DNA of 32,000 nucleotides from Candidatus Nitrospira inopinata. Its GTDB lineage: Bacteria; Nitrospirota; Nitrospiria; Nitrospirales; Nitrospiraceae. The first letter of the stretch is position 1. Every line of letters begins with the position of its first letter. The stretch is taken from the NCBI RefSeq assembly GCF_001458695.1, contig NZ_LN885086.1:1260001-1292000 (forward strand), written 5' to 3'. The notes under the pieces were generated by a model. The model was not told where the DNA came from, did not search any database, and saw only the letters and a list, made by a program, of their open reading frames with translations. A program made the position numbers and the translations under genes. This document shows positions 1 to 32,000 of this stretch, in pieces.

Positions 1-809
1 CGCTCAAGGCGGGACACACGTACCACTTCAGCGGTCAGACCATCGCTCATGACGAGATTATCGGGAAACAGGATGGCACGGTCGTCGTGCTGTCCGGCGG
101 AAAGAAGATGTTGGCGCTTAAGCCTACGTTCAGGGATTACGTGCTCAAAATGCCCCGCGGCGCGCAAGTGCTGTACCCAAAGGACCTCGCGCTCATTCCC
201 ATGTGGGCGGACATCTATCCGGGGGCTCGGGTCTTTGAGGCGGGAACCGGTTCGGGAGCGCTCACCATGGCGCTTTTGCGCGCGGTGGGGCCGAAAGGGC
301 TGGTTGTGACGTACGACGTGCGAGAAGATTTCGCCCGCACCGCGCTTCTGAACATCGATCGTCATCTGGGGCCCGTTCACAACTTGGTGGCCTTGCGCAA
401 GAACGCCTACGAATCGATCGAGATGCCGGAGGATGGAGTTCCATTTGATCGCGTGGTGCTGGATCTTCCCGAGCCGTGGCAAGTGGTTCCTCATGCGGCC
501 AGGGTTCTTCGGTCAGGTGGAATATATTTGAGTTTCGTCCCGACGGTCCCGCAAGTCATGCAAACGGTCGAGGCGCTGGAGCGGGCGGCGACGTTCGCCA
601 TGATGGAAACGTTTGAGTCGTTGCTGCGGACCTGGTCGGTGCAAGGCCGAAGCGTGAGGCCGGACCACAGGATGGTCGCCCACTCCGGATTCATTACCGT
701 GGCAAGGAAAGTGGAAGCCGGCTTGCCCGCGGCGCGAGCGGAACAAGCCGATGCCGACGATGTCTTCAACGCCGAGACGAGGGGCGAAACGGAAGGGTCG
801 GAAGGGTGA
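1..809 (+). CDS. trmI: tRNA (adenine-N1)-methyltransferase, TrmI/GCD14 family; 5' end lies outside the window
   Basis: Frame 3 is open from nt 3 (LKAGHTYHFSGQTIAHDEIIGKQDGTVVVLSGGKKM...), so the ATG at 87 is internal. SAM-binding motif EAGTGSGALT and the VLDLPEPW motif are typical of TrmI. Confidence 0.8.
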   Translation, partial: LKAGHTYHFSGQTIAHDEIIGKQDGTVVVLSGGKKMLALKPTFRDYVLKMPRGAQVLYPKDLALIPMWADIYPGARVFEAGTGSGALTMALLRAVGPKGLVVTYDVREDFARTALLNIDRHLGPVHNLVALRKNAYESIEMPEDGVPFDRVVLDLPEPWQVVPHAARVLRSGGIYLSFVPTVPQVMQTVEALERAATFAMMETFESLLRTWSVQGRSVRPDHRMVAHSGFITVARKVEAGLPAARAEQADADDVFNAETRGETEGSEG

Positions 810-814
810 GCAGG

Positions 815-1576
815 ATGCAGCGATTGACGGGGAAAGTCGCCGTCATCACGGGTGGGAATGCCGGGATCGGGGAAGCCGTGGCCAAACGGTTTGCGGCGGA
901 AGGGGCGTCGGTGACGATCACGGGGCGCCGTCAAGCGGAGTTAGATCGTGTGGCACGGACGATTCGGCATGCCACCGAGAACGTCCTGGCCGTCGCCGGT
1001 TCCGTAACGGACGAGGCGCACGCGCAAGAGGTTGTGCGGACGACCATCGATCGCTTCGGTCGGATTGATATTTTGGTGAACAATGCGGGGATCGGCGATT
1101 TCGGCAAGCGGTTGCACGAGATCGACGATGAGCGATGGGGAACCGTTTTTGACGTCAACGTGACGGGCGTGTTTCGCATGACGAGGGCGACGATCCCCCA
1201 GATGCTGAAACAGAAGGCCGGCTCTATCGTGAATATCTCGTCCGTCGCCAGCTTGGTCGGAATTCCCGGATTGCCGGCCTATGCCGCGTCCAAAGGGGCC
1301 CTTGACGCCCTCACAAGGGCGCTGGCGGTCGACTATGCCCAAGACGGCATCCGTTGCAACGTGGTCAACCCGGCGCTCATCGATACCCCGATGGCGGCGC
1401 CGCTGATGGCGAATCCGGCGATGCTGCAATCGATGCTCGCCCAATATGCCGTTCGTCGCGCGGGGAGCCCTGATGAAGTGGCGAGCCTGGTGCTCTATCT
1501 GGCATCGGACGAGGCCGGGTGGGTGACCGGAGGCACGTTTACGATCGACGGGGGAATGACCATCTACAAGGGCTAG
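815..1576 (+). CDS. Short-chain dehydrogenase/reductase (SDR) family oxidoreductase
   Basis: N-terminal TGGNAGIG Rossmann motif, NNAG, and catalytic S...YAASK. The ATG at 815 (MQRLTGKVAVITGG) is preferred over the GTG at 806, which overlaps the trmI stop. Substrate unknown. Confidence 0.85.
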   Translation: MQRLTGKVAVITGGNAGIGEAVAKRFAAEGASVTITGRRQAELDRVARTIRHATENVLAVAGSVTDEAHAQEVVRTTIDRFGRIDILVNNAGIGDFGKRLHEIDDERWGTVFDVNVTGVFRMTRATIPQMLKQKAGSIVNISSVASLVGIPGLPAYAASKGALDALTRALAVDYAQDGIRCNVVNPALIDTPMAAPLMANPAMLQSMLAQYAVRRAGSPDEVASLVLYLASDEAGWVTGGTFTIDGGMTIYKG

Positions 1577-1613
1577 GCCGGCGGCCATTTCCCCGCATCT
1601 GCACACGAAAAAT

Positions 1614-2468
1614 ATGGAGATCGGTCCCCACACTCGGTTTTGCGGCATTATCGGCAATCCCGTCGAACATTCTCTCTCTCCCGCCATTCACAACGCGGCC
1701 TTTCGGTCGCTCGGCGTCGATTGCGTGTATCTGGCGTGGAAAGTCGAACGGATCGGAGACGCGATTCGAGGCCTCCGGGCGCTGGGGAATTTCCGCGGCG
1801 CCAGCGTGACCATCCCGCATAAGGTCGCGGCCGTGCCGTTTCTGGACGAGATCGAACCGACGGCCGGCCGGATCGGCGCCATCAATACAATCGTGGCGGA
1901 GAAGGGGCGCCTCATCGGGTATAACACCGACGCTACCGGCGCCCTGCGCGCTCTGCGGGGTGGGGGCGTCGCGCTGGCCGGGCGGCGCATTGTCATGCTC
2001 GGCTCGGGAGGCGCCGCGCGCGCCATCGCCTTTGCGCTGGCGGCGGAATCGGACGCGGAGAAGCTCGTCATCCTGGGCGTCGATCACGCCGAACGAACGA
2101 CGTTGGCCGATGATCTTCGATCCAAGACCGCCTTACCCGTTAACGACGACACCCTTGACGAGAGCACCCTTCGCCGGACGGTCCCTGACGCCCACGTTCT
2201 GATTCACTGCACGCCGGTCGGCATGTTCCCCAAGGCGGACGCCTCCTGTGTGCCGGCTTCATTGTTGCACGCCGGTCTGGCCGTGATGGATATCGTCTAT
2301 AACCCCAGGGTCACGAGGTTGCTCGCGGATGCCCAACGAGCCGGCTGTCGGACGATTCCCGGTCTGGAGATGTTTCTTCATCAGGCGGTCGCGCAATTTG
2401 AACTGTGGACGAATCGATCGGCCCCCGTTGACGTGATGCGCGCGGTGCTGGAGTCCCATTTCACATGA
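1614..2468 (+). CDS. aroE: Shikimate dehydrogenase
   Basis: Motifs GNPVEHSLSP, SVTIPHK, GYNTDATG and a GSGGAARA NADP-binding loop. Lies immediately upstream of aroK and overlaps it. Confidence 0.9.
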   Translation: MEIGPHTRFCGIIGNPVEHSLSPAIHNAAFRSLGVDCVYLAWKVERIGDAIRGLRALGNFRGASVTIPHKVAAVPFLDEIEPTAGRIGAINTIVAEKGRLIGYNTDATGALRALRGGGVALAGRRIVMLGSGGAARAIAFALAAESDAEKLVILGVDHAERTTLADDLRSKTALPVNDDTLDESTLRRTVPDAHVLIHCTPVGMFPKADASCVPASLLHAGLAVMDIVYNPRVTRLLADAQRAGCRTIPGLEMFLHQAVAQFELWTNRSAPVDVMRAVLESHFT

Positions 2469-2965
2469 ACGTCGTGCTGATCGGTTATCGCGGGACCGGC
2501 AAGAGCACGGTGGGGAAAATCGTGGCGTCCCGCCTGGGGAGGACCGTGATCTCGACCGACGCGGAAGTGGTAAAACGGGCCGGACGGAACATCCCCGAGA
2601 TTGTCGCGCAATACGGCTGGGACTACTTCCGCGATCTCGAGTCTCAGGTGTGTCGTGAGCTGGCGGCGGGAGACGGCCTGGTGATCGACACGGGAGGCGG
2701 AGCCATCCTGCGTCCGGAGAACGTCGAGCGTCTCAAACAAAACGGTATCCTGTTTTGGCTGACGGCGTCCGTTGAGACGATCGTCCGACGTATCGGCCGT
2801 GATAAGCAACGCCCGTCGCTCACTGGAACCAAATCCTTTGTCGACGAGGTGGAGGACGTTTTGCGCGAGCGGACGCCGAAGTATCAAGCCGCGGCGGATC
2901 ACGTCATCGCGACGGATGGACGATCCCTCGGGCAAGTTGCGGACGAGATTCTTGCGCGTCTCTAG
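2465..2965 (+). CDS. aroK: Shikimate kinase
   Basis: Walker A GYRGTGKST at the N-terminus, size of 166 aa, and an ATGA start/stop overlap with aroE. Confidence 0.9.
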   Translation: MNVVLIGYRGTGKSTVGKIVASRLGRTVISTDAEVVKRAGRNIPEIVAQYGWDYFRDLESQVCRELAAGDGLVIDTGGGAILRPENVERLKQNGILFWLTASVETIVRRIGRDKQRPSLTGTKSFVDEVEDVLRERTPKYQAAADHVIATDGRSLGQVADEILARL

Positions 2966-3025
2966 TCAACCGGCGGATCATGTTCTTGACAAGTCTTCTC
3001 CCAACATGCTTTTTGTAGGCTTGCT

Positions 3026-3102
<77 letters not shown>

Positions 3103-3621
3103 CACTGAGGAGCATGCGCCGCCTGGATTCGGCATGCTCACCGGCTCTCGAAGCCGAGACGGCGCCACCCCCTCCCCTGAGCGGCGCCGTATGACGCGGC
3201 AGACAGATTCTTCCGGGCTTGCGAACAAGATCGATTCTGAGTCTCGATAGAGCCTTTACCTCTATCTTCCCGCCTAACTTGTCATGATCGCGGCATTTTT
3301 GATGATCCGGCAGCCTGATTTCATTTGGAACCTCTCAATCGGCAAAGTAGCTGGAGGGCCCCGGCGAGACCAAATAAGAGAATTCTGGCATAATTAAAAA
3401 AGTCAAGAAGAAGAGGTAACCTTGGATGTGAAAGATACGGGTCAAGAAGGGGGCAAAACGAAGTCCGCTGTCCGGATGGAAAAGAGAACAGTGCCATGTG
3501 GAAGGGGAGCCCTCATGCCTTTTTATGCGAGCGATCGCTTCAAGAAGTGAGGCCGATGTATTCATGGATCTGCCGTGCGGGTGACGGAATGGACGAGCCA
3601 CCCAGGAGAAGGAGATAAGCC

Positions 3622-3762
3622 ATGATCCCCATCTTGCAGGATATAAGAGCAGGGTTCTTTTTGGCCCTTGCCTTGGCGATGGTGGTGTTGATTTGTACGA
3701 TCGCCGGATTGGGAGTAGTGCTACGACCGGTCCGCTGGTCTGATCGCAGAGGGTACCGATAG
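3622..3762 (+). CDS. Hypothetical 46-aa hydrophobic peptide (single predicted TM helix)
   Basis: Below the ORF-track cutoff. ATG preceded by AGGAGAAGGAG, ending about 7 nt upstream. Translation: MIPILQDIRAGFFLALALAMVVLICTIAGLGVVLRPVRWSDRRGYR. No homology support. Confidence 0.3.
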   Translation: MIPILQDIRAGFFLALALAMVVLICTIAGLGVVLRPVRWSDRRGYR

Positions 3763-4096
3763 CTCGTGGCCCGGTATTGTCCGATGGCATAGGGGCAGGG
3801 GCTCAGGGTGAGACAAGCCCTCATACTTCTCCTCGGTTTTCCTCAATAAGGCGGCTTCAGGTTCACGTTCTTCATCGACGCAATCTTCTTGCTGATTGTA
3901 AAACCTTCGCAGGATCCCCGTAGTTTCGGCCATTTGCCGACGAGGAGCCGGCCGAGAGGCGGTTTTTTTAATCGATGCTATATTTGTTGTGTTTCGAACC
4001 GGAAGTCCACAAAACGGGGTTTCTGTCGCGTGGGTTGTGTCGGCGCGTGGGGAGCTCAACGGGCGTAGAAGGTCTTGATCGGGAGGCAAGAAAGGT

Positions 4097-4720
4097 ATGA
4101 ATCGATTTGTCGCCAGATCCGGTGCGGTTGTGGTTGCAGGGGCGATTCTCATTATGCTTCAAGGCTGCGGGACGAAATGGGTGCAATCCGACGGCGAACA
4201 AGCGGCTCCTCCCCTTTCAAATCAAGGGTCGGGAGGGGAGTTGCGCGGTTTTTCCCGCAATCCGCCCCAAGAGCGAGTGACCGGAGACGGCTCCGTGCCC
4301 GGCGCGTCTTCGATGGCGACCGCCCGCCGGTCGGCCGAGCGGACCAAAGAAGAGATGGAGGCGGAGCAAGCCGCGGCGGAAGCCGGTCTTCAGGACGTCT
4401 TTTTTGGTTACGACGAATGGACGGTGTCTCCGGCGGGAATCGAAGCGCTCGATCGCGATGCCGCCTACCTCAAGGATCACCCGGATGCCGTGTTAAGGGT
4501 CGAGGGTCATTGTGATGAGCGCGGCACGAGCGCGTATAACCTGGTGCTGGGAGACAAACGGGCCAAAGCCGTCCGTCGTTACTTGGTTGAATCCGGTGTC
4601 GGCGAGAGGCGAATCACGATCGTCTCTCTCGGCAAGGAACGGCCCTTCTGCTTCGATCATGACGAAGCCTGTTATCAGCAGAACCGCCGAGGCCATATGC
4701 TGCTCAATCTGAAAAGATAG
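4097..4720 (+). CDS. pal: Peptidoglycan-associated lipoprotein / OmpA-family protein
   Basis: Signal peptide with lipobox-like LQGC. C-terminal OmpA_C domain (VFFGYDEWTVSP, LRVEGHCDERGTSAYNLVLGDKRAKAV, GKERP). Confidence 0.85.
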   Translation: MNRFVARSGAVVVAGAILIMLQGCGTKWVQSDGEQAAPPLSNQGSGGELRGFSRNPPQERVTGDGSVPGASSMATARRSAERTKEEMEAEQAAAEAGLQDVFFGYDEWTVSPAGIEALDRDAAYLKDHPDAVLRVEGHCDERGTSAYNLVLGDKRAKAVRRYLVESGVGERRITIVSLGKERPFCFDHDEACYQQNRRGHMLLNLKR

Positions 4721-4830
4721 CGACGGTGCGCGAGGTGTGTCCTGCATGGCTCCGCGTAGACGGAGAAAGGAGAGGAGCAAGAGAATCGCCCCGACCTTCG
4801 GGCGGAGTCTTGGACGAATAGGTGACCGTG

Positions 4831-5229
4831 ATGGACTGGAGGAAGAGAAGAGTCGCTTCAAAGATGGGAAGGCCGGCACAGGCGTCGTCCTGTTCGTCGG
4901 ATAGACTTCAGGCTCGGGACCGACGCGATCAGCCGCGATTTCATGCCCAATTCCGCAGCAGCCTTTCCGGACAGCACCAGGAGGGGCACGGACGAACCAT
5001 GGATATCTCGGCAGGGGGCTGCAAGATCGAGAGTGATCTAATGGTCGCGGAAGGGACGACCCTTGAATGTCGGATCCACGTTCCTGGACTGGATTGGCCT
5101 CTGAGGATCGACGAGGCCACGGTCCGGTGGACGGACGGCAAGACGTTCGGTCTCAGGTTTTCCAAAATCAGCCCTCAAGAGCTGGAAAAGCTCGAGGCGG
5201 TTCTCGACGACCTTGAGCGCGAGGCGTAA
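4831..5229 (+). CDS. PilZ domain protein (putative c-di-GMP receptor)
   Basis: RRDQPR (RxxxR) followed by DISAGG (D/NxSxxG). Start uncertain: GTG 4822, ATG 4831 or ATG 4864. Confidence 0.6.
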   Translation: MDWRKRRVASKMGRPAQASSCSSDRLQARDRRDQPRFHAQFRSSLSGQHQEGHGRTMDISAGGCKIESDLMVAEGTTLECRIHVPGLDWPLRIDEATVRWTDGKTFGLRFSKISPQELEKLEAVLDDLEREA

Positions 5230-5432
5230 TCGAGAACGCGCTGCTCTCCGATAGACCGCTCACTGAATCTACCCGCCAGCTTCGGACAAACACCGTTGAC
5301 AGAGGTGCCGCAACTATCAGAAAGTACAGCCCCCCAAGGTCCAACGGTTATCGCCGGATAATGGAATCATGGAGGCGGTCGGATTGCAGGTTCGGTGTTG
5401 TTGACGAGGGCCTGAAAAAGGAGGAAGGGGAA

Positions 5433-5594
5433 GTGGAACAACGCTACGTGGTGACAGTGAAATTTCTCGTGGAGGCGGATTCGGCGGAAGACGCAGAGGA
5501 AATGATTGAAAGCGCGTGCGAGAAGGCGGCGGCATCATTTCCCGGCATGAGTTACGAGGGAATTGAAGATATCGAAGAGGGCGAGGAGGAGTAA
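5433..5594 (+). CDS. Small acidic hypothetical protein (~53 aa)
   Basis: GTG at 5433 lies 8 nt after AGGAGG. The ORF could alternatively start at ATG 5361, which has no SD. The C-terminus is strongly acidic (IEDIEEGEEE). No recognisable family. Confidence 0.4.
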   Translation: MEQRYVVTVKFLVEADSAEDAEEMIESACEKAAASFPGMSYEGIEDIEEGEEE

Positions 5595-5683
5595 AAACTT
5601 TCCGTCGTGATCGTCGCCGGCGGACGAACGTATCGTCGGAATCAGAGACGCGACGAACTCCTTTTCTTTGAACGGCAGTCGAT

Positions 5684-6247
5684 ATGGAAACAGCCGTCCG
5701 CTCAAATCAGCCTCGGTACGAAGTGGCGACGCTCGCCGGAGGCTGTTTCTGGTGTCTCGAAGCGGTATTCGACCTGGTTCGAGGCGTTGTGTCCGTGGAG
5801 TCCGGCTACATGGGGGGAGCAACCGACCGTCCGACCTATGAAGCGGTCTGTAGCGGTCAAACGGGGCATGCCGAAGCGGTTCGGATCACCTTTGATCCCG
5901 GAGTGATTTCGTATCGAGATCTCCTGGAAATCTTCTTTGCGATTCACGATCCCACGACGCTTAACCGGCAGGGCAATGACAGAGGGACTCAGTATCGTTC
6001 GGCCATTTTTTACCATCATCCGCTCCAACGGGAAATCGCCGAACAGATGATTCATGCTCTGACCGAACAGAAACGATATCCAAACCCCATCGTGACCGAG
6101 GTGGTGCCGGCTTCGCAGTGGTACGAAGCGGAGGCGTATCACCAGGAGTACTTTCAACGAAATCCCTTCCAAGGCTATTGTCAGTATGTCGTGGGGCCGA
6201 AAGTGGCGAAGTTCCGTAAGGAACATGCCGATCGCCTGAAGGCCTAA
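5684..6247 (+). CDS. msrA: Peptide-methionine (S)-S-oxide reductase
   Basis: Active-site motif GGCFWCLEAVF, GHAEAV, and a conserved YHQ(E)Y near the C-terminus. Confidence 0.92.
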   Translation: METAVRSNQPRYEVATLAGGCFWCLEAVFDLVRGVVSVESGYMGGATDRPTYEAVCSGQTGHAEAVRITFDPGVISYRDLLEIFFAIHDPTTLNRQGNDRGTQYRSAIFYHHPLQREIAEQMIHALTEQKRYPNPIVTEVVPASQWYEAEAYHQEYFQRNPFQGYCQYVVGPKVAKFRKEHADRLKA

Positions 6248-6678
6248 TCCCCGGTTGAGTTCCAGCCTGTCCCCTTGGTCAGGATCTCTCGGATCGATCC
6301 GAACACAGGCGGTTTTTGGAAAATTTGACGCGTGTGGAGCCGCACCTCCGCGTGAACCGGACAGAAGGGCCATTCGCCGGGCTGATTCCCTTGCACATGC
6401 GCCACGATCGATGGATTCGCGGGATCATCCGACACCTGAGCGATAATCAAAGGGCTGTCGGGATCGAGCAAGCAGGTGTCATCGAGGCGAGAGCCGGAAG
6501 TGTTCGATGGCGTAATGAGCTGAACCCGCTGCTCTCCATCTGAAAAGACCGTATCGCCCTCGCGAAGAGGACCGGTCGGAGCCAATGAGTAGAGAATAAG
6601 CGGGGCGACCAGGATCATGATCGCGACGATGCCGATCGACCACAGCGGCGGTTCGGCTGGAGAATGTTCCGAAGACAC
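6244..6678 (-). CDS. Hypothetical membrane-anchored protein
   Basis: 144-aa ORF with an N-terminal TM helix (LWSIGIVAIMILVAPLILYSL). Divergent from the porin gene; no recognisable family. Confidence 0.45.
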   Translation of the reverse strand: MSSEHSPAEPPLWSIGIVAIMILVAPLILYSLAPTGPLREGDTVFSDGEQRVQLITPSNTSGSRLDDTCLLDPDSPLIIAQVSDDPANPSIVAHVQGNQPGEWPFCPVHAEVRLHTRQIFQKPPVFGSIREILTKGTGWNSTGD

Positions 6679-24598: not shown

Positions 24599-26155
24599 AT
24601 GCCGCAGACGAACGGCACGGACAAATCGCTGGAATCCTGGATCTGGGACGCCGCCTGTTCGATCCGTGGCGCCAAGGACGCCCCGAAGTTCAAGGACTCC
24701 ATCCTGCCGCTGATTTTTGCGAAGCGGCTCTGCGACGTCTTCGACGACGAGCTGAACCGCATCGCCAAAGAAGTCGGCTCCCGCGCCAAGGCCTTCAAGC
24801 TCGTCAAGCAGGACAAGAAGCTCGTCCGCTTCTATCTCCCACTCCAACCGACCAATCCCGACGAGCCGGTCTGGTCTGTCATCCGCAAGCTGGCCGACAA
24901 GATCGGCGAACGGCTCACGACGCATCTCCGCGCCATCGCCGACGAGAACCCGTTGCTGAAAGGGATTATCGACCGGGTGGACTTCAACGCCACGACCCAC
25001 GGCGTGCGGGACCTGGCCGACGACCGGCTCAGCAATCTGATCGAGCGCATCAGCGAAAAGCGGCTCGGCCTCGCCGACGTGGAGCCGGACATCATCGGGC
25101 GGAGCTACGAATATCTCATCCGCAAGTTCGCCGAGGGCAGTGTCTCCAGCGCCGGTGAGTTTTACACGCCCGCCGAGGTTGGCATGGTCATGGCGAAGAT
25201 CATGGACCCGGAGCCCGGCATGGAGATCTACGACCCCTGCTGCGGCTCGGCCGGCCTGCTCATCAAGTGCGAGCTGGCGCTGGACAAAAAGATGAGCCTG
25301 CGATCGAAGAAGACCTACGTGCAGCTCAAGCTCTACGGCCAGGAGTATGTCGCCGAAACCTGGGCCATGGCGAACATGAACATGATCATCCATGACATGG
25401 AAGGCGAAATCGAGCTCGGCGATACCTTCAAGAATCCCAAATTCCGCAAGGGCAACCGCCTCCGGACCTTCGACCGGGTCGTCACCAATCCCATGTGGAA
25501 CCAGGACTGGTGGACGGAGAAGGACTACGATGCCGACGAGTGGGACCGGTTCCCGAAAGGGGCCGGCTTTCCCGGCCGCAAGGCAGACTGGGGCTGGGTG
25601 CAGATCGTGCTGGCGAGTCTCAACGAGAAGGGCCGGGCCGCCATCGTGCTCGACACGGGCGCCGCCTCGCGCGGATCGGGCAATGCCAATGCGAATAAGG
25701 AAAAGGACGTGCGCCGCTGGTTCGTGGAACAGGACTTGATCGAAGGCGTGATCTATCTACCTGAAAATCTCTTCTACAACACCACCGCGCCGGGCATCAT
25801 TCTGTTCCTCAACAAGGCCAAGCAGAAAGATCGCAAGGGCAAGCTCTTCCTCGTCAACGCCTCGCAGGAGTTCGCCAAGGGCGATCCAAAGAACTATCTT
25901 ACGGACGATGGCATTCGCCGCATCACTGAGACGTTCAAGAGTTGGAAGGAACAAGAGAAGTTCAGCCGGATCGTCACCCGCGAAGAGATCGCCAAGAACG
26001 ACTTCAACATCTCGCCAAGCCGGTACATCCACACGGGAGCGGGCGAGGAATACCGGCCGATTGGGGAGATTGTGGAGGAATTGGAAGCCCTGGATGAGGA
26101 AACGGCCCAATCTGACAAGGCCTTGAGGCAAGTTCTAAAGGGGCTGCGACTCTAG
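24599..26155 (+). CDS. hsdM: Type I restriction-modification system, DNA methyltransferase subunit M
   Basis: HsdM_N-like start (LESWIWDAACSIRGAKDAPKFKDSILPLIFAKRL), GEFYTP, SAM motif IYDPCCGSAGLL, and catalytic-position tetrapeptide NPMW. The ATG at 24599 is chosen; the upstream extension to 24326 is Arg/Gly-rich noise. Confidence 0.9.
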   Translation: MPQTNGTDKSLESWIWDAACSIRGAKDAPKFKDSILPLIFAKRLCDVFDDELNRIAKEVGSRAKAFKLVKQDKKLVRFYLPLQPTNPDEPVWSVIRKLADKIGERLTTHLRAIADENPLLKGIIDRVDFNATTHGVRDLADDRLSNLIERISEKRLGLADVEPDIIGRSYEYLIRKFAEGSVSSAGEFYTPAEVGMVMAKIMDPEPGMEIYDPCCGSAGLLIKCELALDKKMSLRSKKTYVQLKLYGQEYVAETWAMANMNMIIHDMEGEIELGDTFKNPKFRKGNRLRTFDRVVTNPMWNQDWWTEKDYDADEWDRFPKGAGFPGRKADWGWVQIVLASLNEKGRAAIVLDTGAASRGSGNANANKEKDVRRWFVEQDLIEGVIYLPENLFYNTTAPGIILFLNKAKQKDRKGKLFLVNASQEFAKGDPKNYLTDDGIRRITETFKSWKEQEKFSRIVTREEIAKNDFNISPSRYIHTGAGEEYRPIGEIVEELEALDEETAQSDKALRQVLKGLRL

Positions 26156-26158
26156 CTA

Positions 26159-27370
26159 ATGACTTGGTTGGCAATCGAATTCCCCAAGGCTCTTGAGAAG
26201 ACGAAAGTTGGCAGAGAGAACCAGATTCTCTCTTCCGAGATTAAGCCGTTCGGTCGATTTCCGGTGATCGACCAAGGGCAGACATTCATAGCTGGATACT
26301 CTGACGACGAGGGGAAGGTTATCCACAAGGAACTTCCGGTAGTAATTTTTGGAGACCATACACGCAGCATCAAGTATGTGGACTTCCCGTTCATTCTTGG
26401 AGCGGATGGCACAAAAGTGCTGAAGCCCAAGGCGGAACTCTTTGAGACCAAGTTTTTCTACTATGCGCTTATGAGCCTTGATATTCCCAATCGTGGATAC
26501 AACCGTCACTTCACTCTCCTGAAAGAGAAGACCGTTCCGCGCCCAGAGAAAGATGAGCAGCGGAAGATTGCCTCGGTGCTGAGCTTGGTGCAGCGGGCGA
26601 TTGAGCAGCAGGAGCGGCTGATCGCGCTGACGCAGGAATTGAAGAAGTCGCTGATGCACAAGCTCTTCACCGAAGGTCTCCGCGGCGAACGGCAGAAACA
26701 GACCGAGATCGGCCCCGTGCCGGAGAGTTGGGAAGTTAAGCCGCTTGGTGTTCTTGCTAAGATTGGTAACGGTTCAACTCCCAAACGAGACAACGTCAGT
26801 TATTGGGAAGATGGTTCTATTCCATGGCTGACCAGCGGGAAAATTCATGAGCGATTTATCACGGAGGCTGACGAGTTTGTCACAGAACTGGCGGCAAAAG
26901 AATCCCACCTCCCTTGCGTGAAGCCGGGGAGTCTCCTTATCGCCATTACCGGCCAAGGAAAGACGCTCGGCAATTCGGCATTGGTGACGTTTGAAACTTG
27001 CATCAGTCAGCATCTTGCCTACGCCCAATTTCACACTCCGGATATCGTGCCCGAGTTTGTCCTCTGGTATTTCCAAACCCGCTATCAACATTTGCGTTCG
27101 ATAGGTCAGGCTGGCGGGAGCACCAAAGGCGCGCTTACTTGCGGGTATCTCAAAACATATCCGGTCCCGGTGCCTTCGCGAGAAGAACAGCGCGAGATTG
27201 CAGACATCTTTACTGGGTTGGAGCAGAAAGAGCAGGTGCATATTCACAAAAGACGAACTTTGAATGACCTCTTCCGCACCCTCCTCCACCAACTTATGAC
27301 CGCGCAGATTCGCGTCCACGATCTGGATCTGTTTGAATTTGGGCTGGATTCTGAAGCTGCCGTGCCCTAA
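26159..27370 (+). CDS. hsdS: Type I restriction-modification system, specificity subunit S
   Basis: Two variable target-recognition halves separated by conserved helical repeats (EQRKIASVLSLVQRAIEQQERLIALTQELKKSLMHKLF and EQREIADIFTGLEQ...LNDLFRTLLHQLMT). Starts 3 nt after the hsdM stop. Visibly lower GC than flanking genes. Confidence 0.88.
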   Translation: MTWLAIEFPKALEKTKVGRENQILSSEIKPFGRFPVIDQGQTFIAGYSDDEGKVIHKELPVVIFGDHTRSIKYVDFPFILGADGTKVLKPKAELFETKFFYYALMSLDIPNRGYNRHFTLLKEKTVPRPEKDEQRKIASVLSLVQRAIEQQERLIALTQELKKSLMHKLFTEGLRGERQKQTEIGPVPESWEVKPLGVLAKIGNGSTPKRDNVSYWEDGSIPWLTSGKIHERFITEADEFVTELAAKESHLPCVKPGSLLIAITGQGKTLGNSALVTFETCISQHLAYAQFHTPDIVPEFVLWYFQTRYQHLRSIGQAGGSTKGALTCGYLKTYPVPVPSREEQREIADIFTGLEQKEQVHIHKRRTLNDLFRTLLHQLMTAQIRVHDLDLFEFGLDSEAAVP

Positions 27371-27384
27371 GCTGGCCTTGTCGC

Positions 27385-28167
27385 ATGATGCCGCTCGTGC
27401 TGAAAATCGATGCCACTGAACAATTTCCTCGCCTTGCCCACGCGCCTATTGCCGAGGCGGTCATCGACATACGGGCCCGCGCGGAGGCGCCCTGGGAGGA
27501 GTCAGCGGTCCGACAATGTCTGGTTCCACTGCTTCCTGCCTATCCGCACATTGAATCGCAGCGGGAATTTGAGCACGCGCTGCAAGTCGGGCCGGGCCAG
27601 GAGACCGTTCAGATACACCGGGATTTAGGCTGGAAGGGGCTGCGATGTGAGTCAGCGGATCATGTCCACATCGCCCAATTCAACCGCGACGGGTTTGTCT
27701 TCAGCCGGCTTCGTCCCTATGATCATTGGGAGCAGTTTCACGGCGAAGCGATGCGGCTGTGGAAAGTGTATCGGGACCTCGCCCGGCCGTCGGCAATCCA
27801 GCGGCTCGGTCTTCGCTTTATCAATCGCATCGAACTGCCGCTCGATGGGCTTCGGCCGGATGACTATCTCCACATGCCTGCGGATGTGCTCAAGGGGCTA
27901 CCGCTTTCGCGGGCCGGTTTCTTCCACCGGGACGTGCTTGGCGTCCCCGGCTATCCCTACCTAGTTGCGATCGTTCGAACTGTCCAGCCGATACAGGTCT
28001 CGGGCGGTAAAGGATTTGGGTTGCTCCTCGATATTGACGTATTCTCGACCGAGCCATTCGATCTCCGTGATGATCTGCTGGCACAGCGTCTGGTTGAGAT
28101 GCGATGGTTGAAAAATAAAGCATTTTTCGGCAGTATTACGCAGCAAGCATTGGAGACTTTTCAATGA
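27385..28167 (+). CDS. Uncharacterised 260-aa protein, possibly TIGR04255-family-like
   Basis: Starts 14 nt after the hsdS stop. N-terminal HAPIAEAVIDIRA, central RLGLRFINRIELP and LLLDIDV resemble my recollection of the TIGR04255 conserved hypothetical family. No catalytic motif recognised. Confidence 0.6.
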   Translation: MMPLVLKIDATEQFPRLAHAPIAEAVIDIRARAEAPWEESAVRQCLVPLLPAYPHIESQREFEHALQVGPGQETVQIHRDLGWKGLRCESADHVHIAQFNRDGFVFSRLRPYDHWEQFHGEAMRLWKVYRDLARPSAIQRLGLRFINRIELPLDGLRPDDYLHMPADVLKGLPLSRAGFFHRDVLGVPGYPYLVAIVRTVQPIQVSGGKGFGLLLDIDVFSTEPFDLRDDLLAQRLVEMRWLKNKAFFGSITQQALETFQ

Positions 28168-28661
28168 CGCTTGCCACGCTCGATTCCCCACAACTTTCCT
28201 ATGGTGCGGCCCCCACTCGTGGTGCCGGTCCCGAAGCACGTTTTATCGCAAAGCAATCCGAGGAAGGTCGGCGCCGCTTGCGGGAGGCTCATTCCATTGG
28301 TCTCGGCGCTGAACGTGCCTTTGAAGAGCTGTTCGTGGTCGCAAGGGAATGCGAAACGCGGAATTGGGATGGGCATGGGGCCACCCGTGTTTCGGCGGAA
28401 GCGATTGCCCATGCTTGCCGACTCCTGAGTGCGCTGCCGCTTGGAATTCCTGCTCCTTCCGTTGGGGCTGAGCCTGATGGGCATGTAACTTTCGAGTGGC
28501 ATCGCAGTCCACGATGGACTCTTTCCGTAAGCATCAGTCCAGAAGGCGACCTTCATTATGCTGCGCTGCTCGGCTCAAGCAAGGTTTATGGAACCGAGCC
28601 GTTCTTTGGCGAGACTCCCTCGCGTATCCTTGAATTGATCCGCCAGGTCAGTCTTCTGTGA
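28164..28661 (+). CDS. Uncharacterised 165-aa protein
   Basis: ATGA overlap with the preceding gene. Contains NWDGHGA and PDGHVTFEWH segments. No family recognised. Confidence 0.6.
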   Translation: MTLATLDSPQLSYGAAPTRGAGPEARFIAKQSEEGRRRLREAHSIGLGAERAFEELFVVARECETRNWDGHGATRVSAEAIAHACRLLSALPLGIPAPSVGAEPDGHVTFEWHRSPRWTLSVSISPEGDLHYAALLGSSKVYGTEPFFGETPSRILELIRQVSLL

Positions 28662-29059
28662 ATGAAGATATCTCATGGCCTCCGGTCACGGATGATGAAG
28701 ATTTGGCGCGTTTTGTCCTTTTCCGAGGATGGATTCGAAGCAGTCATAGCACGGTCAAACCGGATGCGTTCATTCCCTATCCTTATCCGGACCTCTCTGT
28801 AACCCGCCATATCGGGCTATCGGTGGAAGAAGTTTGGCAGATCGGCCAGGCAGTCGCTGATCGCCGTCCTGCTACGCTATATGGACGAGCGGATATCCAG
28901 GCCGTACATATCAGGCGGCAAGCCCTTCGAATCGTTCCCACTCCCGAGCCGAGAAACCATGCGAATATCACGGACTGGCCCAAGGACAAGCCCGCGCAGA
29001 AAATCATTGCCCAGGAACTTGCTGCGGTTGCGCGTTATGTGCCCAACCCAAATCAATAA
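28658..29059 (+). CDS. Uncharacterised 133-aa protein
   Basis: GTG start overlapping the upstream stop (GTGA). Segments VKPDAFIPYPYPDLSVTRH and NHANITDWPKDKPAQKIIAQELA. No family recognised. Confidence 0.55.
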   Translation: MNEDISWPPVTDDEDLARFVLFRGWIRSSHSTVKPDAFIPYPYPDLSVTRHIGLSVEEVWQIGQAVADRRPATLYGRADIQAVHIRRQALRIVPTPEPRNHANITDWPKDKPAQKIIAQELAAVARYVPNPNQ

Positions 29060-29100
29060 CCAGGGCTGGGGGCAGCTCAGATGAAACCTCGGTGAAATGG

Positions 29101-29457
29101 AGTAATACGTGATGGGTTATTACTCTGTTTCAGCCGGTCATTACCCTATTCTTTCCTTGTGCTCAGCCAAGGTCTGGAATTGGGTATTACGCAATCAAAG
29201 GGGTAATGAAGTGGGTAATGGGAGAGGGGAAGAGCTAACCGGACTCCGAAAGAGTAGCTAACCGCACGGACCCGGCGCGGCTTGGCGTAAAAGGGTGATA
29301 GCGGAGGGTTGGTGTGATCATCACATCACAAAACGGCCACGTGATATGAATAGGCGAACCTGCCGCCTGCTGGCGACGGCCAAGCCCAGGAAAGAGGGTA
29401 ATAAGGGACCGGTTATTACCCTCTTTCGTGTTCCCATTACCCTCTTTCTGAGACCGG
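29101..29457. repeat. Non-coding spacer dense in GGGTAAT/ATTACCC repeat units in both orientations
   Basis: Nine GTAAT/ATTAC cores at about 29102, 29119, 29141, 29186, 29203, 29214, 29397, 29416 and 29436. Longer units (G)AAAGAGGGTAAT(A/G)(A/G)G occur at 29139-29155 (rc), 29197-29210, 29211-29227, 29390-29404, 29413-29427 (rc) and 29435-29448 (rc). AGCTAACCG is also repeated at 29233 and 29255. Confidence 0.8.
29390..29427. repeat. Perfect 15-bp inverted repeat with an 8-nt spacer
   Basis: GAAAGAGGGTAATAA gggaccgg TTATTACCCTCTTTC, 40 nt upstream of the ATG of the hsdR remnant. Candidate operator or intrinsic terminator stem. Confidence 0.85.
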
Positions 29458-29466
29458 TTGTTCAAT

Positions 29467-29703
29467 ATGCCCTCTCCTGGTGAGCACAAGACGGTCCTGG
29501 CCCGCATCCTGGCCTATGTCCAGGAGATCGGCTGGAGCAGCTATGCGTCTCGGGAGTGGGGAAATGCAGTGCGGATGCACAAGGCATCGCTCTTTTTCAA
29601 CGATCTGGATAGACCAACAGATGATCGCGCTTCGTGTCCAGGATCTCGATTCATCGTTCCTGACGGAGGGTACCGCAGTATGAGCGGATTGGTATCACCC
29701 TGA
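29467..29703 (+). pseudogene. Degenerate duplicate of the hsdR 5' end (truncated remnant)
   Basis: The first 70 nt are about 87% identical (61/70 by hand alignment) to the start of the intact hsdR at 30460. MPSPGEHKTVLARILAYVQEIGW compares with MPAPGEHKTVQARILAYAQEIGW. A later patch ASLFFNDL matches ASLFFGDL, then similarity decays and the frame ends at 29703. Confidence 0.7.
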
Positions 29704-29782
29704 CTTGAAACGAGGTAAGATCGACACGGAGTTTACAGAGTTTCCTTCGGGCATGGGGCCCGAATTGTGTCTGCACGGCTCT

Positions 29783-30280
29783 ATGGAACGAACCCTGCAA
29801 GTCCTCAATGACCTCGAGCAGGACGGCGTGCTGAGCCGGTATGCAATCGGCGGCGCGATGGGGGCGACCTTTTATGTCGAGCCGCTGCTGACCTTCGATC
29901 TAGACGTCATCGTACTGCTGCCGGAGATGGAGAGCGGGCTGCTGACGCTCGCTCCGCTCTATGGGGCGCTGCGCGCCAAAGGTTATGCGGAAGAAGCCGA
30001 ATGTGTGGTGGTCGAGGGCGTGCCGGTCCAGTTCCTGCCTGCCTACAACGCTCTCTTGGAAGAGGCCTTGCGAGAAGCGCACGAGACGCCGTATCAGGCG
30101 ACGTCCACGCGGGTTCTCCGAGTCGAACACCTTGTGGCGATCTGTCTGCAAACCGGACGAGCGAAGGATCGTGAGCGGGTGCGGATTCTACGAGAGCAGG
30201 CCACGCTCGATCATGAGTATCTCGCCGCAGTTCTCCGTCGGCATCAACTGGAAGGAAAATGGAAAGAATGGATCGCGTGA
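29783..30280 (+). CDS. Nucleotidyltransferase-fold protein (minimal NTase / AbiEii-like)
   Basis: YAIGGAMGATFYVEPLLTFDLDVIV fits the pol-beta NTase pattern hGG-x(~14)-DhDh. C-terminal LVAICLQTGRAKDRERVRIL is typical of small bacterial NTase-like proteins. Start uncertain: TTG 29705, ATG 29753 or ATG 29783. Confidence 0.6.
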   Translation: MERTLQVLNDLEQDGVLSRYAIGGAMGATFYVEPLLTFDLDVIVLLPEMESGLLTLAPLYGALRAKGYAEEAECVVVEGVPVQFLPAYNALLEEALREAHETPYQATSTRVLRVEHLVAICLQTGRAKDRERVRILREQATLDHEYLAAVLRRHQLEGKWKEWIA

Positions 30281-30456
30281 ATCCTGAGATCGAAAAGCTC
30301 TTCCGCGCCAAAAAGCTGCGTCGGGTTCGGCTTGCTGCCCTGCCGTTCCATGAGAAGGTGCGGGCCGTCGTCCAAATGCAGCAGATGGCTGCTCCGGTAT
30401 TGCGCGCCCGAGGCAAACAGGTGCGGGTCTGGGACCTCCCACCTTCTGATATGTGA
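30259..30456 (+). CDS. Small 65-aa hypothetical protein, partner of the NTase-fold gene
   Basis: Overlaps the NTase gene by 22 nt (13 nt if ATG 30268 is used) and ends 3 nt before the hsdR ATG. Basic and helical (LFRAKKLRRVRLAALPFHEKVRAVVQMQQ). No family recognised. Confidence 0.45.
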   Translation: MERMDRVNPEIEKLFRAKKLRRVRLAALPFHEKVRAVVQMQQMAAPVLRARGKQVRVWDLPPSDM

Positions 30457-30459
30457 ACG

Positions 30460-32000
30460 ATGCCCGCTCCCGGTGAGCACAAGACGGTCCAAGCCCGTAT
30501 TCTGGCTTACGCCCAGGAGATCGGCTGGACCTATGTGCCGCGGGAGGAAGCCGAGCGGCGGCGGGGATTCGATCCCGATGCGGCGACTCCCGAAGAACAG
30601 GCCCGCTACGCCTCCCTCTTCTTCGGCGATCTGCTCCATGCCAAGGTCCGCGAATTCAATCCCAAGTATAAAGAAGCCGAAGGGGCGCTGGTCGGCGAGT
30701 TGCAACGGCTCCATGCGGACATCTACGGCAACCGCGACTTTCTGAGCTACCTCCGTAACCAGCGGACTTTTTTCTCTCCAGACGACGACCGCGAACTGGA
30801 TCTCATCCTGATCGACTACGGTGATCTTGCTCGCCCGAAAAAGGATTGGCGCAATCGCTACGAAGTCACGGAAGAGTTCTGTGTCCACAACGGCCGGTTT
30901 GGGACGCGCGAGGACGTGGTCTTCCTCATCAACGGCATTCCGATGCTGGTCATCGAGTGCAAGAACGCGACAAAGGACGAAGCTATCGCGCTCGGCATCG
31001 ACCAGATTCGCCGCTACCATCTGGAGACGCCCGAAGTGATGGTGCCGGAGATGCTGTTCACGGCCACGGAAGCCATCGGCTTTTCCTACGGCGTCACCTG
31101 GAACACCGTCCGGCGGAACATCTTTCGCTGGAAGCATGAGGAGGCGGGCCGGCTCGAAGCGAAGGTGAAGAGCTTTTGTTCCGTGCCGATGGTGCTGCGA
31201 TTCCTCAAGGACTTCATTTTATTCGCGGAGAAGGAGGAAGAACTGCAGAAGTTCATCCTGGCGCAGCATCAGACTGCTGCCGTGGACCGCGTGGTGGATC
31301 GGGCGCTCGATGCCAAACGGACCCGCGGCCTTGTCTGGCACACGCAGGGGAGCGGCAAGACCTATACGATGATCAAGGCGGCCGAGTTGCTCTTCAAGGC
31401 GCCCAAGGCCGACAAGCCGACCATCCTCTTGATGATCGACCGGAACGAACTGGAAGATCAGCTCCTCAAGAATCTGGCGGCGGTCGGCTTGAGCAATGTG
31501 GCGCACGCCTACTCGATGGTCGAGCTGACGCGGCTCCTGAAGCAAGACTATCGAGGCCTGATCGTCACCATGATCCACAAGTTCCGCGACATGCCGGCCA
31601 ATCTCAATACGAGGTCGAATATCTTCGTCCTGATCGACGAAGCGCACCGGACGACCGGGGGCGATCTGGGGAACTATCTGATGGCCGGGCTCCCGAACGC
31701 GACGTTCATCGGGCTTACCGGCACGCCGATCGACAAGACCGCCTACGGCCGGGGAACCTTCAAGACCTTCGGTTGCGAGGACGACAAGGGTTATCTCCAC
31801 AAATACTCGATCGCCGAGAGTATCGAGGACGGGACGACGCTCCCGCTCTACTACAACCTGGCGCCGAACGAGATGCTGGTGCCGCACGAGCTGATGGAGC
31901 GGGAATTTCTGTCACTGGTTGAGACTGAGGGGATCGCCGACATCGAAGAGCTGAACAAGATTCTCGACCGCGCCGTGAATCTCAAGAACTTCCTCAAGGG
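30460..32000 (+). CDS. hsdR: Type I restriction enzyme, R subunit (3' end outside the window)
   Basis: Frame 1 is open from the ATG at 30460 to the window end, which is why it is missing from the closed-ORF track. PD-(D/E)xK nuclease (EDVVFLINGIPMLVIECK), helicase motif I HTQGSGKT, motif II LIDEAHR, motif III GLTGTP. Confidence 0.92.
   Translation, partial: MPAPGEHKTVQARILAYAQEIGWTYVPREEAERRRGFDPDAATPEEQARYASLFFGDLLHAKVREFNPKYKEAEGALVGELQRLHADIYGNRDFLSYLRNQRTFFSPDDDRELDLILIDYGDLARPKKDWRNRYEVTEEFCVHNGRFGTREDVVFLINGIPMLVIECKNATKDEAIALGIDQIRRYHLETPEVMVPEMLFTATEAIGFSYGVTWNTVRRNIFRWKHEEAGRLEAKVKSFCSVPMVLRFLKDFILFAEKEEELQKFILAQHQTAAVDRVVDRALDAKRTRGLVWHTQGSGKTYTMIKAAELLFKAPKADKPTILLMIDRNELEDQLLKNLAAVGLSNVAHAYSMVELTRLLKQDYRGLIVTMIHKFRDMPANLNTRSNIFVLIDEAHRTTGGDLGNYLMAGLPNATFIGLTGTPIDKTAYGRGTFKTFGCEDDKGYLHKYSIAESIEDGTTLPLYYNLAPNEMLVPHELMEREFLSLVETEGIADIEELNKILDRAVNLKNFLK

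Follow-up and report, generated by a model that had tools for sequence, protein, structure and literature searches.

Here, we identify a duplicated start of the restriction gene hsdR in a 32,000-nucleotide (nt) stretch of the Candidatus Nitrospira inopinata genome (hereafter, the window) as a probable recombination scar within a type I restriction-modification (R-M) operon. In the reading that we favor, and to which we assign a probability of roughly two in three, the scar arose by an operon-to-operon splice that carried along a toxin-antitoxin (TA)-like gene pair, i.e., the genes for a MenT1-like protein with a predicted nucleotidyltransferase (NTase) fold and for a small two-helix partner. 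The far-end segment of another type I operon, consisting of the hsdS 3' tail, the NTase gene, the small partner gene, and the hsdR 5' end, would have been spliced into the first ~70 to 180 nt of the resident hsdR gene. The cargo would then have been flanked on both sides by direct copies of the start of hsdR, which is highly conserved, such that its subsequent gain or loss would proceed by ordinary homologous recombination within ~70 nt. The window was compared with related loci and contigs, designated L001 to L115. Its relevant part comprises the following features, in which aa denotes amino acids and ORF an open reading frame:

29060–29466, + strand: old hsdR upstream intergenic region of 407 nt, which aligns with the DNA directly 5' of intact hsdR in L009, L012, and L010
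29467–29536, + strand: upstream copy of hsdR nt 1–70, the young-looking part of the relic (61/70 identical to 30460–30529, 64/70 to L009 hsdR)
29537–29607, + strand: decayed hsdR relic, model nt 71–174, with a deletion of ~36 nt (nhmmer alignment, model 1–174)
29613–29683, + strand: relic of a foreign hsdS 3' tail (nhmmer, hsdS-tail model 72–145), which ends at the relic stop codon
29684–29782, + strand: leader of the NTase gene with the motif GAAACGAGGTAAGAT, common to L113, L114, and L115
29783–30280, + strand: gene for the 165-aa MenT1-like NTase, a putative toxin by fold and by profile match to MenT1
30259/30268–30456, + strand: small ORF for a two-helix protein of 62–65 aa, a putative antitoxin with 174 homologs, overlapping the NTase gene
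30460–30529, + strand: downstream repeat copy, the true hsdR 5' end
30460–32000, + strand: intact hsdR, which runs off the window (Pfam HSDR_N, ResIII, SWI2_SNF2)

Several lines of evidence support that the upstream copy is a relic of hsdR. First, positions 29467–29536 and 30460–30529 are direct repeats in which 61 of 70 bases are identical without gaps, confirming the count of the preliminary description of this DNA, and the hsdR ATG is the first codon of both copies. When hsdR nt 1–70 were slid over all other offsets of the window, the runner-up scored only 35/70. Second, when searched with a DNA profile of the 5' ends of 85 intact hsdR genes, the upstream copy (29467–29607) aligned to model positions 1–174 with an internal deletion (E 4e-18), in line with the earlier proposal of a decaying, internally deleted hsdR start, and a protein profile places its KASLFFNDL in register with kaslffgdl of hsdR. 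Third, the relic is 87% identical to the intact copy in nt 1–70 and ~63% identical beyond, and this drop (87–91% in nt 1–70, ~63% after) indicates, as far as alignments can tell, a junction near nt 70. On direct reading, synonymous third-position changes account for five of the nine bases that differ between the copies, a pattern more in keeping with the divergence of two functional alleles than with a recent duplication in place. The relic ORF has its stop codon at 29701–29703; contrary to the earlier description, the hsdR-derived part already stops near 29607, and positions 29613–29683 are what is left of the 3' tail of an hsdS gene. An assembly or binning artefact that joined two hsdR-bearing strains, an alternative raised at the outset, has a close to negligible chance of explaining these observations. 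The origin from a metagenome and a repeat that could in principle mislead assemblers would speak for it, but the repeat is only 70 nt long at 87% identity, and the same architecture is present in L047, L113, and L115 from other studies. Moreover, the 1.6 kb around the feature are 100% identical in L001–L005, five independently assembled Joint Genome Institute (JGI) metagenome contigs from five samples, which makes an artefact very unlikely.

The hsdS-derived piece points to the source of the inserted DNA. In a search of a 254-nt region with nhmmer, 29613–29683 matched positions 72–145 of the hsdS 3' tail model (E 2e-5). The relic reads DQQMIALRVQDLDSSFLTEG in a shifted frame; the functional hsdS tail of L114 reads HQLMTAQIRVHDLDLSFLTEE. 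L114 contains an operon of the order hsdM-hsdS-NTase-small ORF-hsdR with no relic, and window positions 29613–30800 align to it without a break at 79%. Together, the hsdS-tail relic and this alignment argue that the inserted DNA was the distal part of another type I operon and not a bare two-gene cassette. Thus, the insertion at the hsdR start that was first described is supported, whereas the "two-gene insertion" is better described as hsdS-tail relic, NTase gene, small ORF, and hsdR start. The small ORF ends at 30456, 3 nt before the hsdR ATG at 30460, as reported earlier. This 3-nt spacing between the stop of the small ORF and the start of hsdR is kept in the window, L047, L022, and L035, i.e., in at least four divergent genomes, and it speaks against a local tandem duplication of the hsdR start in which one copy decayed and a free TA module later inserted between the copies. 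Such an origin would also have to accommodate the hsdS-tail relic between the hsdR relic and the NTase gene as well as the share of synonymous differences, which is that of alleles diverged under selection. The NTase/small-ORF pair does occur away from hsdR among TA genes and has thus been relocated historically; even so, we consider a tandem duplication very improbable.

Cleaner loci suggest how the two gene ends were joined. The hsdR and hsdS genes of one locus typically share 5 to 10 identical bases at the joint site, and the shared 9-mer CTGCTGCAC encodes LLH in both hsdR (FFGDLLH followed by AK) and hsdS (FRTLLH followed by QLM). Clean joints of hsdR (model 180–181) to the hsdS tail (model 65) at CTGCTGCAC are present in L015, L018, and L025, and the class of relics that ends at hsdR 180–181 overlaps the hsdS-tail relic by ~9 nt. 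The joint in L113 is a variant reading CTGATAGAC, and L115 and the window have a decayed form of the CTGCTGCAC-type joint. Although an Asp variant (L[IL]DQLM) is confined to scars, it is derivable from hsdR alleles reading DLLD and does not decide between a single and multiple origins. By eye on the alignment, the deletion end-point of the relic and the joint region are apparently common to the window and L115, and the L115 cassette is only ~75% identical to that of the window. If the end-point is indeed shared, then the scar is much older than the split between the window and its cassette-free relative L009. We suggest that the original scar is old and joined an hsdR 5' piece to a foreign hsdS tail at or near the shared CTGCTGCAC (Leu-Leu-His).

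An empty-site allele, as predicted in the preliminary description, is present in both L009 and L012. L009, from a Nitrospira sp., encodes an HsdR that is 96% identical to that of the window and has the same three genes embedded upstream; its intergenic region is ~90% or more identical to 29060–29466 and leads straight into intact hsdR. In L012, the proximal 90 nt of the intergenic region and the hsdR start match the window uninterrupted. The window and L009 differ by a net 993 bp, with the repeats as boundaries. Wherever the two window copies differ, which is at nine sites, L009 shows the state of one copy or the other, as expected if recombination inside the 70 nt can turn the single form into the double one and back. 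The closest relative of the cassette is L113 (87% nt identity from 29654; 92% aa identity of the NTase), in which it has a different upstream context, RhuM and a u165-like gene, which end 3 nt before the ATG of the L113 relic. By contrast, the hsdR body is closest to cassette-free L009 (90–97% nt identity per 100-nt block), which the upstream genes match as well. Positions 1–103 of hsdR are a patchwork of L113-like and L009-like sites and the gene is L009-like afterwards, a comparison limited beyond nt 103 by the bad assembly of L113 over hsdR nt 108–190 (run of N). All five closest hsdR relatives (L009–L013) are without the cassette. Because the cassette and the hsdR body have different closest relatives, the upstream region is shared with L009, and the scar appears older, gain is favored over loss. 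Judged from these alignments, we favor a scenario in which homologous recombination within the hsdR start recently brought in a unit that was already formed and flanked by the repeats. In the window lineage, the 993-bp unit would most likely have been gained by an L009-like operon, giving the order hsdM-hsdS-(three earlier embedded genes)-old hsdR control region-junk relic ORF-NTase-small ORF-hsdR.

The opposite polarity, in which the cassette is ancestral at this Nitrospira locus and L009 and L012 are products of deletion via the 70-nt repeats, is unlikely in our judgment. Some observations would fit loss by inter-repeat recombination: loop-out deletion is favored by direct repeats, the one copy that L009 has combines states of both window copies in a patchwork, which is symmetrical for gain or loss, and the scar is old, given the deletion end-point apparently shared by the window and L115. 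However, loss in relatives leaves unexplained why nt 1–70 of the relic look young and the remainder old, and it fits neither with the absence of the cassette from all of L009–L013 nor with the different closest relatives of the cassette and the hsdR body. When metagenomes were scanned with the 133-aa protein encoded upstream for closer alleles with or without the cassette, only relatives of ≤77% identity were returned, useful for recurrence (L094, L103) and not for polarity, and by base composition the cassette is not set apart from its surroundings. The hsdM gene of L009 (4915–6447) is frameshifted and its hsdR has an in-frame TAG at approximately codon 71 (~10211); with ~3x coverage of this contig, these lesions may be sequencing errors and not real inactivation.

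The scar recurs in related loci. In an unbiased set of 80 loci retrieved only by hsdR similarity, same-strand hsdR 5' relics lie upstream of the intact gene in 19, at a distance of 0.15–6.6 kb, and a search of the same 80 loci for opposite-strand relics gave 0 matches. Relics start within model positions 1–7 in 15 of 20 cases, with the others at 9–11 and one at 25, and their ends span model 40–192; the relic in L068 covers model 168–209 only. The cargo between relic and intact hsdR includes RhuM, PDDEXK_3, GmrSD_N, Fic, DUF3800, and DUF1186, in keeping with the earlier expectation of other cargo at the same position in other genomes. L041 additionally has AAA/RloB-like and HipBA-like ORFs (by eye only). 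Cargo can be stacked: the three-layer L113 array (1–6300), located in a single type I operon, consists of hsdS, SIR2_2 with a DUF87 ATPase, an hsdR5'::hsdS3' relic, RhuM with the u165-like gene, a second hsdR 5' relic, the NTase pair, and hsdR, and L094 and L064 have two relics each. Relics are closer to intact alleles than to one another. However, the three that are linked to RhuM point to one allele group, and we therefore claim only a few independent events (RhuM-linked, GmrSD-linked, and NTase-linked) and not one per locus. The hsdR family is 75–96% identical at the aa level across phyla (first 513 residues), which, as far as sequence comparison goes, implies a very wide horizontal spread of one type I R-M family. 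The hosts of L009–L088 belong to Nitrospirota, Bacillota, Verrucomicrobiota, Acidobacteriota, many Proteobacteria, and others. In L055 (9203–10001), a decayed NTase C-terminus and a small-ORF relic lie between the hsdR relic and intact hsdR, and L056 (5918–16872) is a complex rearranged locus with partial hsdR copies (aa 1–191, 1–23, and 23–118) downstream of a full hsdR start.

The distribution of relic ends bears on whether the first ~70 nt of hsdR could be the att site of an integron- or island-type integrase cassette system. In favor of site-specific integration, the starts of many relics fall on the ATG or no more than ~10 nt away from it, and several relics have their ends near nt 64–91. 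However, homology begins simply where hsdR genes begin, the ends vary over model 40–192 with a distinct class at the hsdS-tail microhomology, and no Pfam integrase or recombinase domain was found among the called genes of loci with gene tables, although L009–L088 were not screened. We give such integration very little credence. A role of the upstream copy as a functional upstream ORF or leader in the regulation of hsdR or the cargo, instead of as a scar, also seems very improbable. The original hsdR start codon and control region are kept, and relic ORFs are intact in L018, L025, L041, and L064, but the relics in L015, L047, and L055 have in-frame stops, relic lengths and sequences vary widely, and the window relic is frameshifted into the hsdS tail.

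The cargo NTase belongs to a family with >4000 homologs at 90% clustering and 1779 clusters at 50%. The 165-aa NTase, the small ORF, and the relic have no usable match in Pfam, NCBIfam, or PADLOC, and Cas5_IIIh, a lone weak PADLOC match for the cargo (18 bits), was judged spurious. In the structure predicted by AlphaFold (AF2) with a 68-sequence alignment (predicted local distance difference test [pLDDT] score 96), the NTase adopts a Pol-beta-type NTase fold with the hG[GS]...[DE]h[DE]h motif. The top five Foldseek matches in the PDB are all MenT1 of M. tuberculosis with template modeling (TM) scores of 0.64–0.71, the best structures being 8an4, 8an5, and 8rr5 (TM 0.70, E 5e-8). The family profile matches the MenT1 sequence (E 2e-6), which is the only PDB sequence at E ≤0.001. 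GG...EPxxT37-x-D39-x-D41 aligns with ...T39-R-D41-V-D43 of MenT1, and G24, T37, D39, and D41 are nearly invariant in the 68 homologs. The predicted structure and the MenT1 matches agree with the NTase fold assigned in the first reading of the sequence. An N-terminally extended form of the protein (TTG at 29705, 191 aa) was rejected; the upstream frame has stops in L047, L007, and L008.

The 174 homologs of the small ORF have a conserved start (MDR...). Its product is predicted to form a helix-turn-helix hairpin of two helices (AF2, pLDDT 87), for which a fold search and a PDB profile search gave no match. The small ORF always adjoins the NTase gene in L006–L008, L022, L047, and L113–L115, and elsewhere in Nitrospira the pair lies among PemK, PIN/MazE, and ParE modules. 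MenT1 extends tRNA 3' ends, and the 68-aa MenA1 sequesters MenT1 and induces its autophosphorylation at T39 (PMC10435456, PMC11375011). By analogy with MenAT1 (Rv0078A/Rv0078B), which the window pair resembles in its best structural match (TM 0.70), in the aligned GG...T-x-D-x-D including the phospho-acceptor Thr, and in the very small helical partner (62–68 aa), the pair is most likely a TA-like module with a putatively toxic NTase. We suggest that the NTase, like MenT1, would modify tRNA 3' ends and thereby block translation, and that the small two-helix protein, plausibly an antitoxin, would restrain it. In L035 (9258–10001), a 73-aa homolog of the small ORF abuts hsdR, and a u165-like gene precedes it in place of the NTase gene. 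The link to hsdR may be tighter for the small ORF than for the NTase.

The pair and hsdR are probably co-expressed. The two cargo genes overlap, the second is spaced from hsdR by only 3 nt, and convincing terminators are lacking (a scan of 28900–30700 gave only two weak terminator-like hairpins, a number not above that in shuffled sequence); co-transcription of the cargo with hsdR from the old control region is therefore plausible as judged from the gene layout. The 3-nt gap suggests that the small ORF may be translationally coupled with hsdR. The region 29094–29448 contains four TTATTACCCTCTTTC-type boxes (0.27 expected), and a palindrome with 18-nt arms is located at 29387–29430; the boxes are conserved directly upstream of intact hsdR in L009, L010, and L012, and the box region might act as operator or terminator. 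In L113, a pair of similar boxes (5464–5498) is located shortly before the NTase gene. The motif GAAAC[AG][ACG]GGTAA[GA]AT (window 29706–29722) is found 25–75 nt before the NTase start in every context examined, including L006, L007, L008, and L047, and could be the module's own promoter or operator.

Besides the possible loss in L009 and L012 and the symmetry of the patchwork, several observations weigh against the reading of an operon-to-operon splice with a MenT1-like TA cargo. The window joint is decayed (GATCTGGATAGACCAAC) and frameshifted, such that its position fits while the original bases are unreadable, and we infer the microhomology crossover in the window from the cleaner loci. Some scars may go back to a single origin, as the common allele group of the three RhuM-linked relics indicates. 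No sigma-70-like promoter was predicted in 28900–30700. The NTase is only ~19% identical to MenT1 and matches neither Pfam DUF1814/AbiEii, even at E ≤10, nor any NCBIfam model. The K137A substitution in MenT1 abolishes nucleotide binding (PMC11375011), and this Lys of the MenT1 "AMKL" pairs with Cys121 of the window NTase (family consensus Ala), in a helix for which the alignment is uncertain. Finally, the gene order is reversed relative to MenAT1: the small gene is downstream of and overlaps the NTase gene, unlike MenA1, which is usually encoded upstream, and its product has no detectable similarity to MenA1.

The proposed splice is reminiscent of homology-facilitated illegitimate recombination with short-homology joints, known from studies of natural transformation, in that long hsdR homology on one side is combined with a 5–10-nt microhomology (hsdR codons 57–59/hsdS tail) on the other side. 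It differs in that the same microhomology joint recurs in several genomes and in that the product has two direct homology arms that allow further gain or loss. In hsdS domain shuffling, recombination occurs in conserved hsdS regions, and here, too, conserved gene segments would serve as crossover points between related type I operons; however, the moving part is non-R-M cargo between hsdS and hsdR rather than target-recognition domains, and the crossover joins two different genes. The position of the window cargo between hsdS and hsdR is also that of prrC. Type I R-M operons are known to harbor embedded genes, among them those for PrrC, encoded within the ecoprrI locus (PMC12707154), TgvAB of Vibrio cholerae VPI-2, and HEC (Hma-embedded candidates) (PMC12707154, PMC11411939). 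If the fold analogy holds, the window cargo would also resemble PrrC as a tRNA-targeting effector, whereas it differs from PrrC- and GmrSD-type systems by having an NTase fold and not an anticodon nuclease or GmrSD-type effector, and a functional link to R-M is suggested only by analogy.

Thus, the kind of event is ordinary, while the recurrent scar architecture is apparently undescribed; in a check of prior art that is incomplete, we found no description of duplicated or truncated hsdR 5' ends or of hsdR::hsdS scars flanking cargo. As read from the aligned loci, this architecture is an hsdR 5' relic, sometimes fused to an hsdS tail at the recurrent microhomology, beside each cargo layer, with the cargo between hsdR-start repeats. 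The route by which embedded R-M genes arrive is rarely visible. Here, the joints are preserved: the start of hsdR is fused to the tail of a foreign hsdS gene, an empty-site allele exists, and relics are present in 19 of 80 loci, sometimes stacked. These observations suggest a concrete and testable route for the growth of defence islands by operon-to-operon recombination via conserved R-M gene ends. Relics of hsdR could serve as a simple bioinformatic marker for new embedded cargo, and MenT1-like NTases with a small partner are flagged as candidate TA or abortive-infection modules in Nitrospira. By a tentative extension of the PrrC analogy, which we hold to be rather unlikely as a whole, the hsdR 5' end and the hsdS 3' tail would be portable homology arms that make type I operons docking sites, with defence and toxin cargo hopping between them and piling up in scar-separated arrays as in L113, and the NTase pair would be a tRNA-targeting guardian that is translationally coupled to HsdR and fires, as PrrC, when restriction is disabled.

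The resident operon of the window is a type I R-M operon with hsdM, hsdS, and hsdR, each with signature domains. Full-length HsdR has 981 aa, as seen in L001, and the NCBIfam hsdR model TIGR00348 matches the truncated window HsdR with E 1e-82. Upstream of the old control region, the operon comprises the following features:

24614–26155, + strand: hsdM, the first gene of the operon (Pfam N6_Mtase, E 2e-93; HsdM_N)
26159–27370, + strand: hsdS (Pfam Methylase_S), with LFRTLLHQLMTAQIRVHDLDL in its C-terminal tail
27385–28167, + strand: TIGR04255-family gene (NCBIfam TIGR04255, E 4e-30), first of the embedded trio
28164–28661, + strand: unassigned gene for a 165-aa protein, second of the embedded trio
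28658–29059, + strand: unassigned gene for a 133-aa protein, third of the embedded trio

The trio of the TIGR04255-family gene and the genes for the 165-aa and 133-aa proteins is also located between hsdS and hsdR in L009, L029, L031, L034, and others, and is a candidate R-M-associated module. Across many phyla, this three-gene module lies between hsdS and hsdR also in L045, L054, L057, L051, and L089–L110; in some metagenome loci with the trio, hsdR was undetected within the ~4 kb of downstream flank examined. On the other side of the operon, a YgjP-like (PF01863) gene is located directly 3' of hsdR in L001 (12008–12328) and in L113–L115, and in L001 it is followed by a pair of PIN-domain genes.

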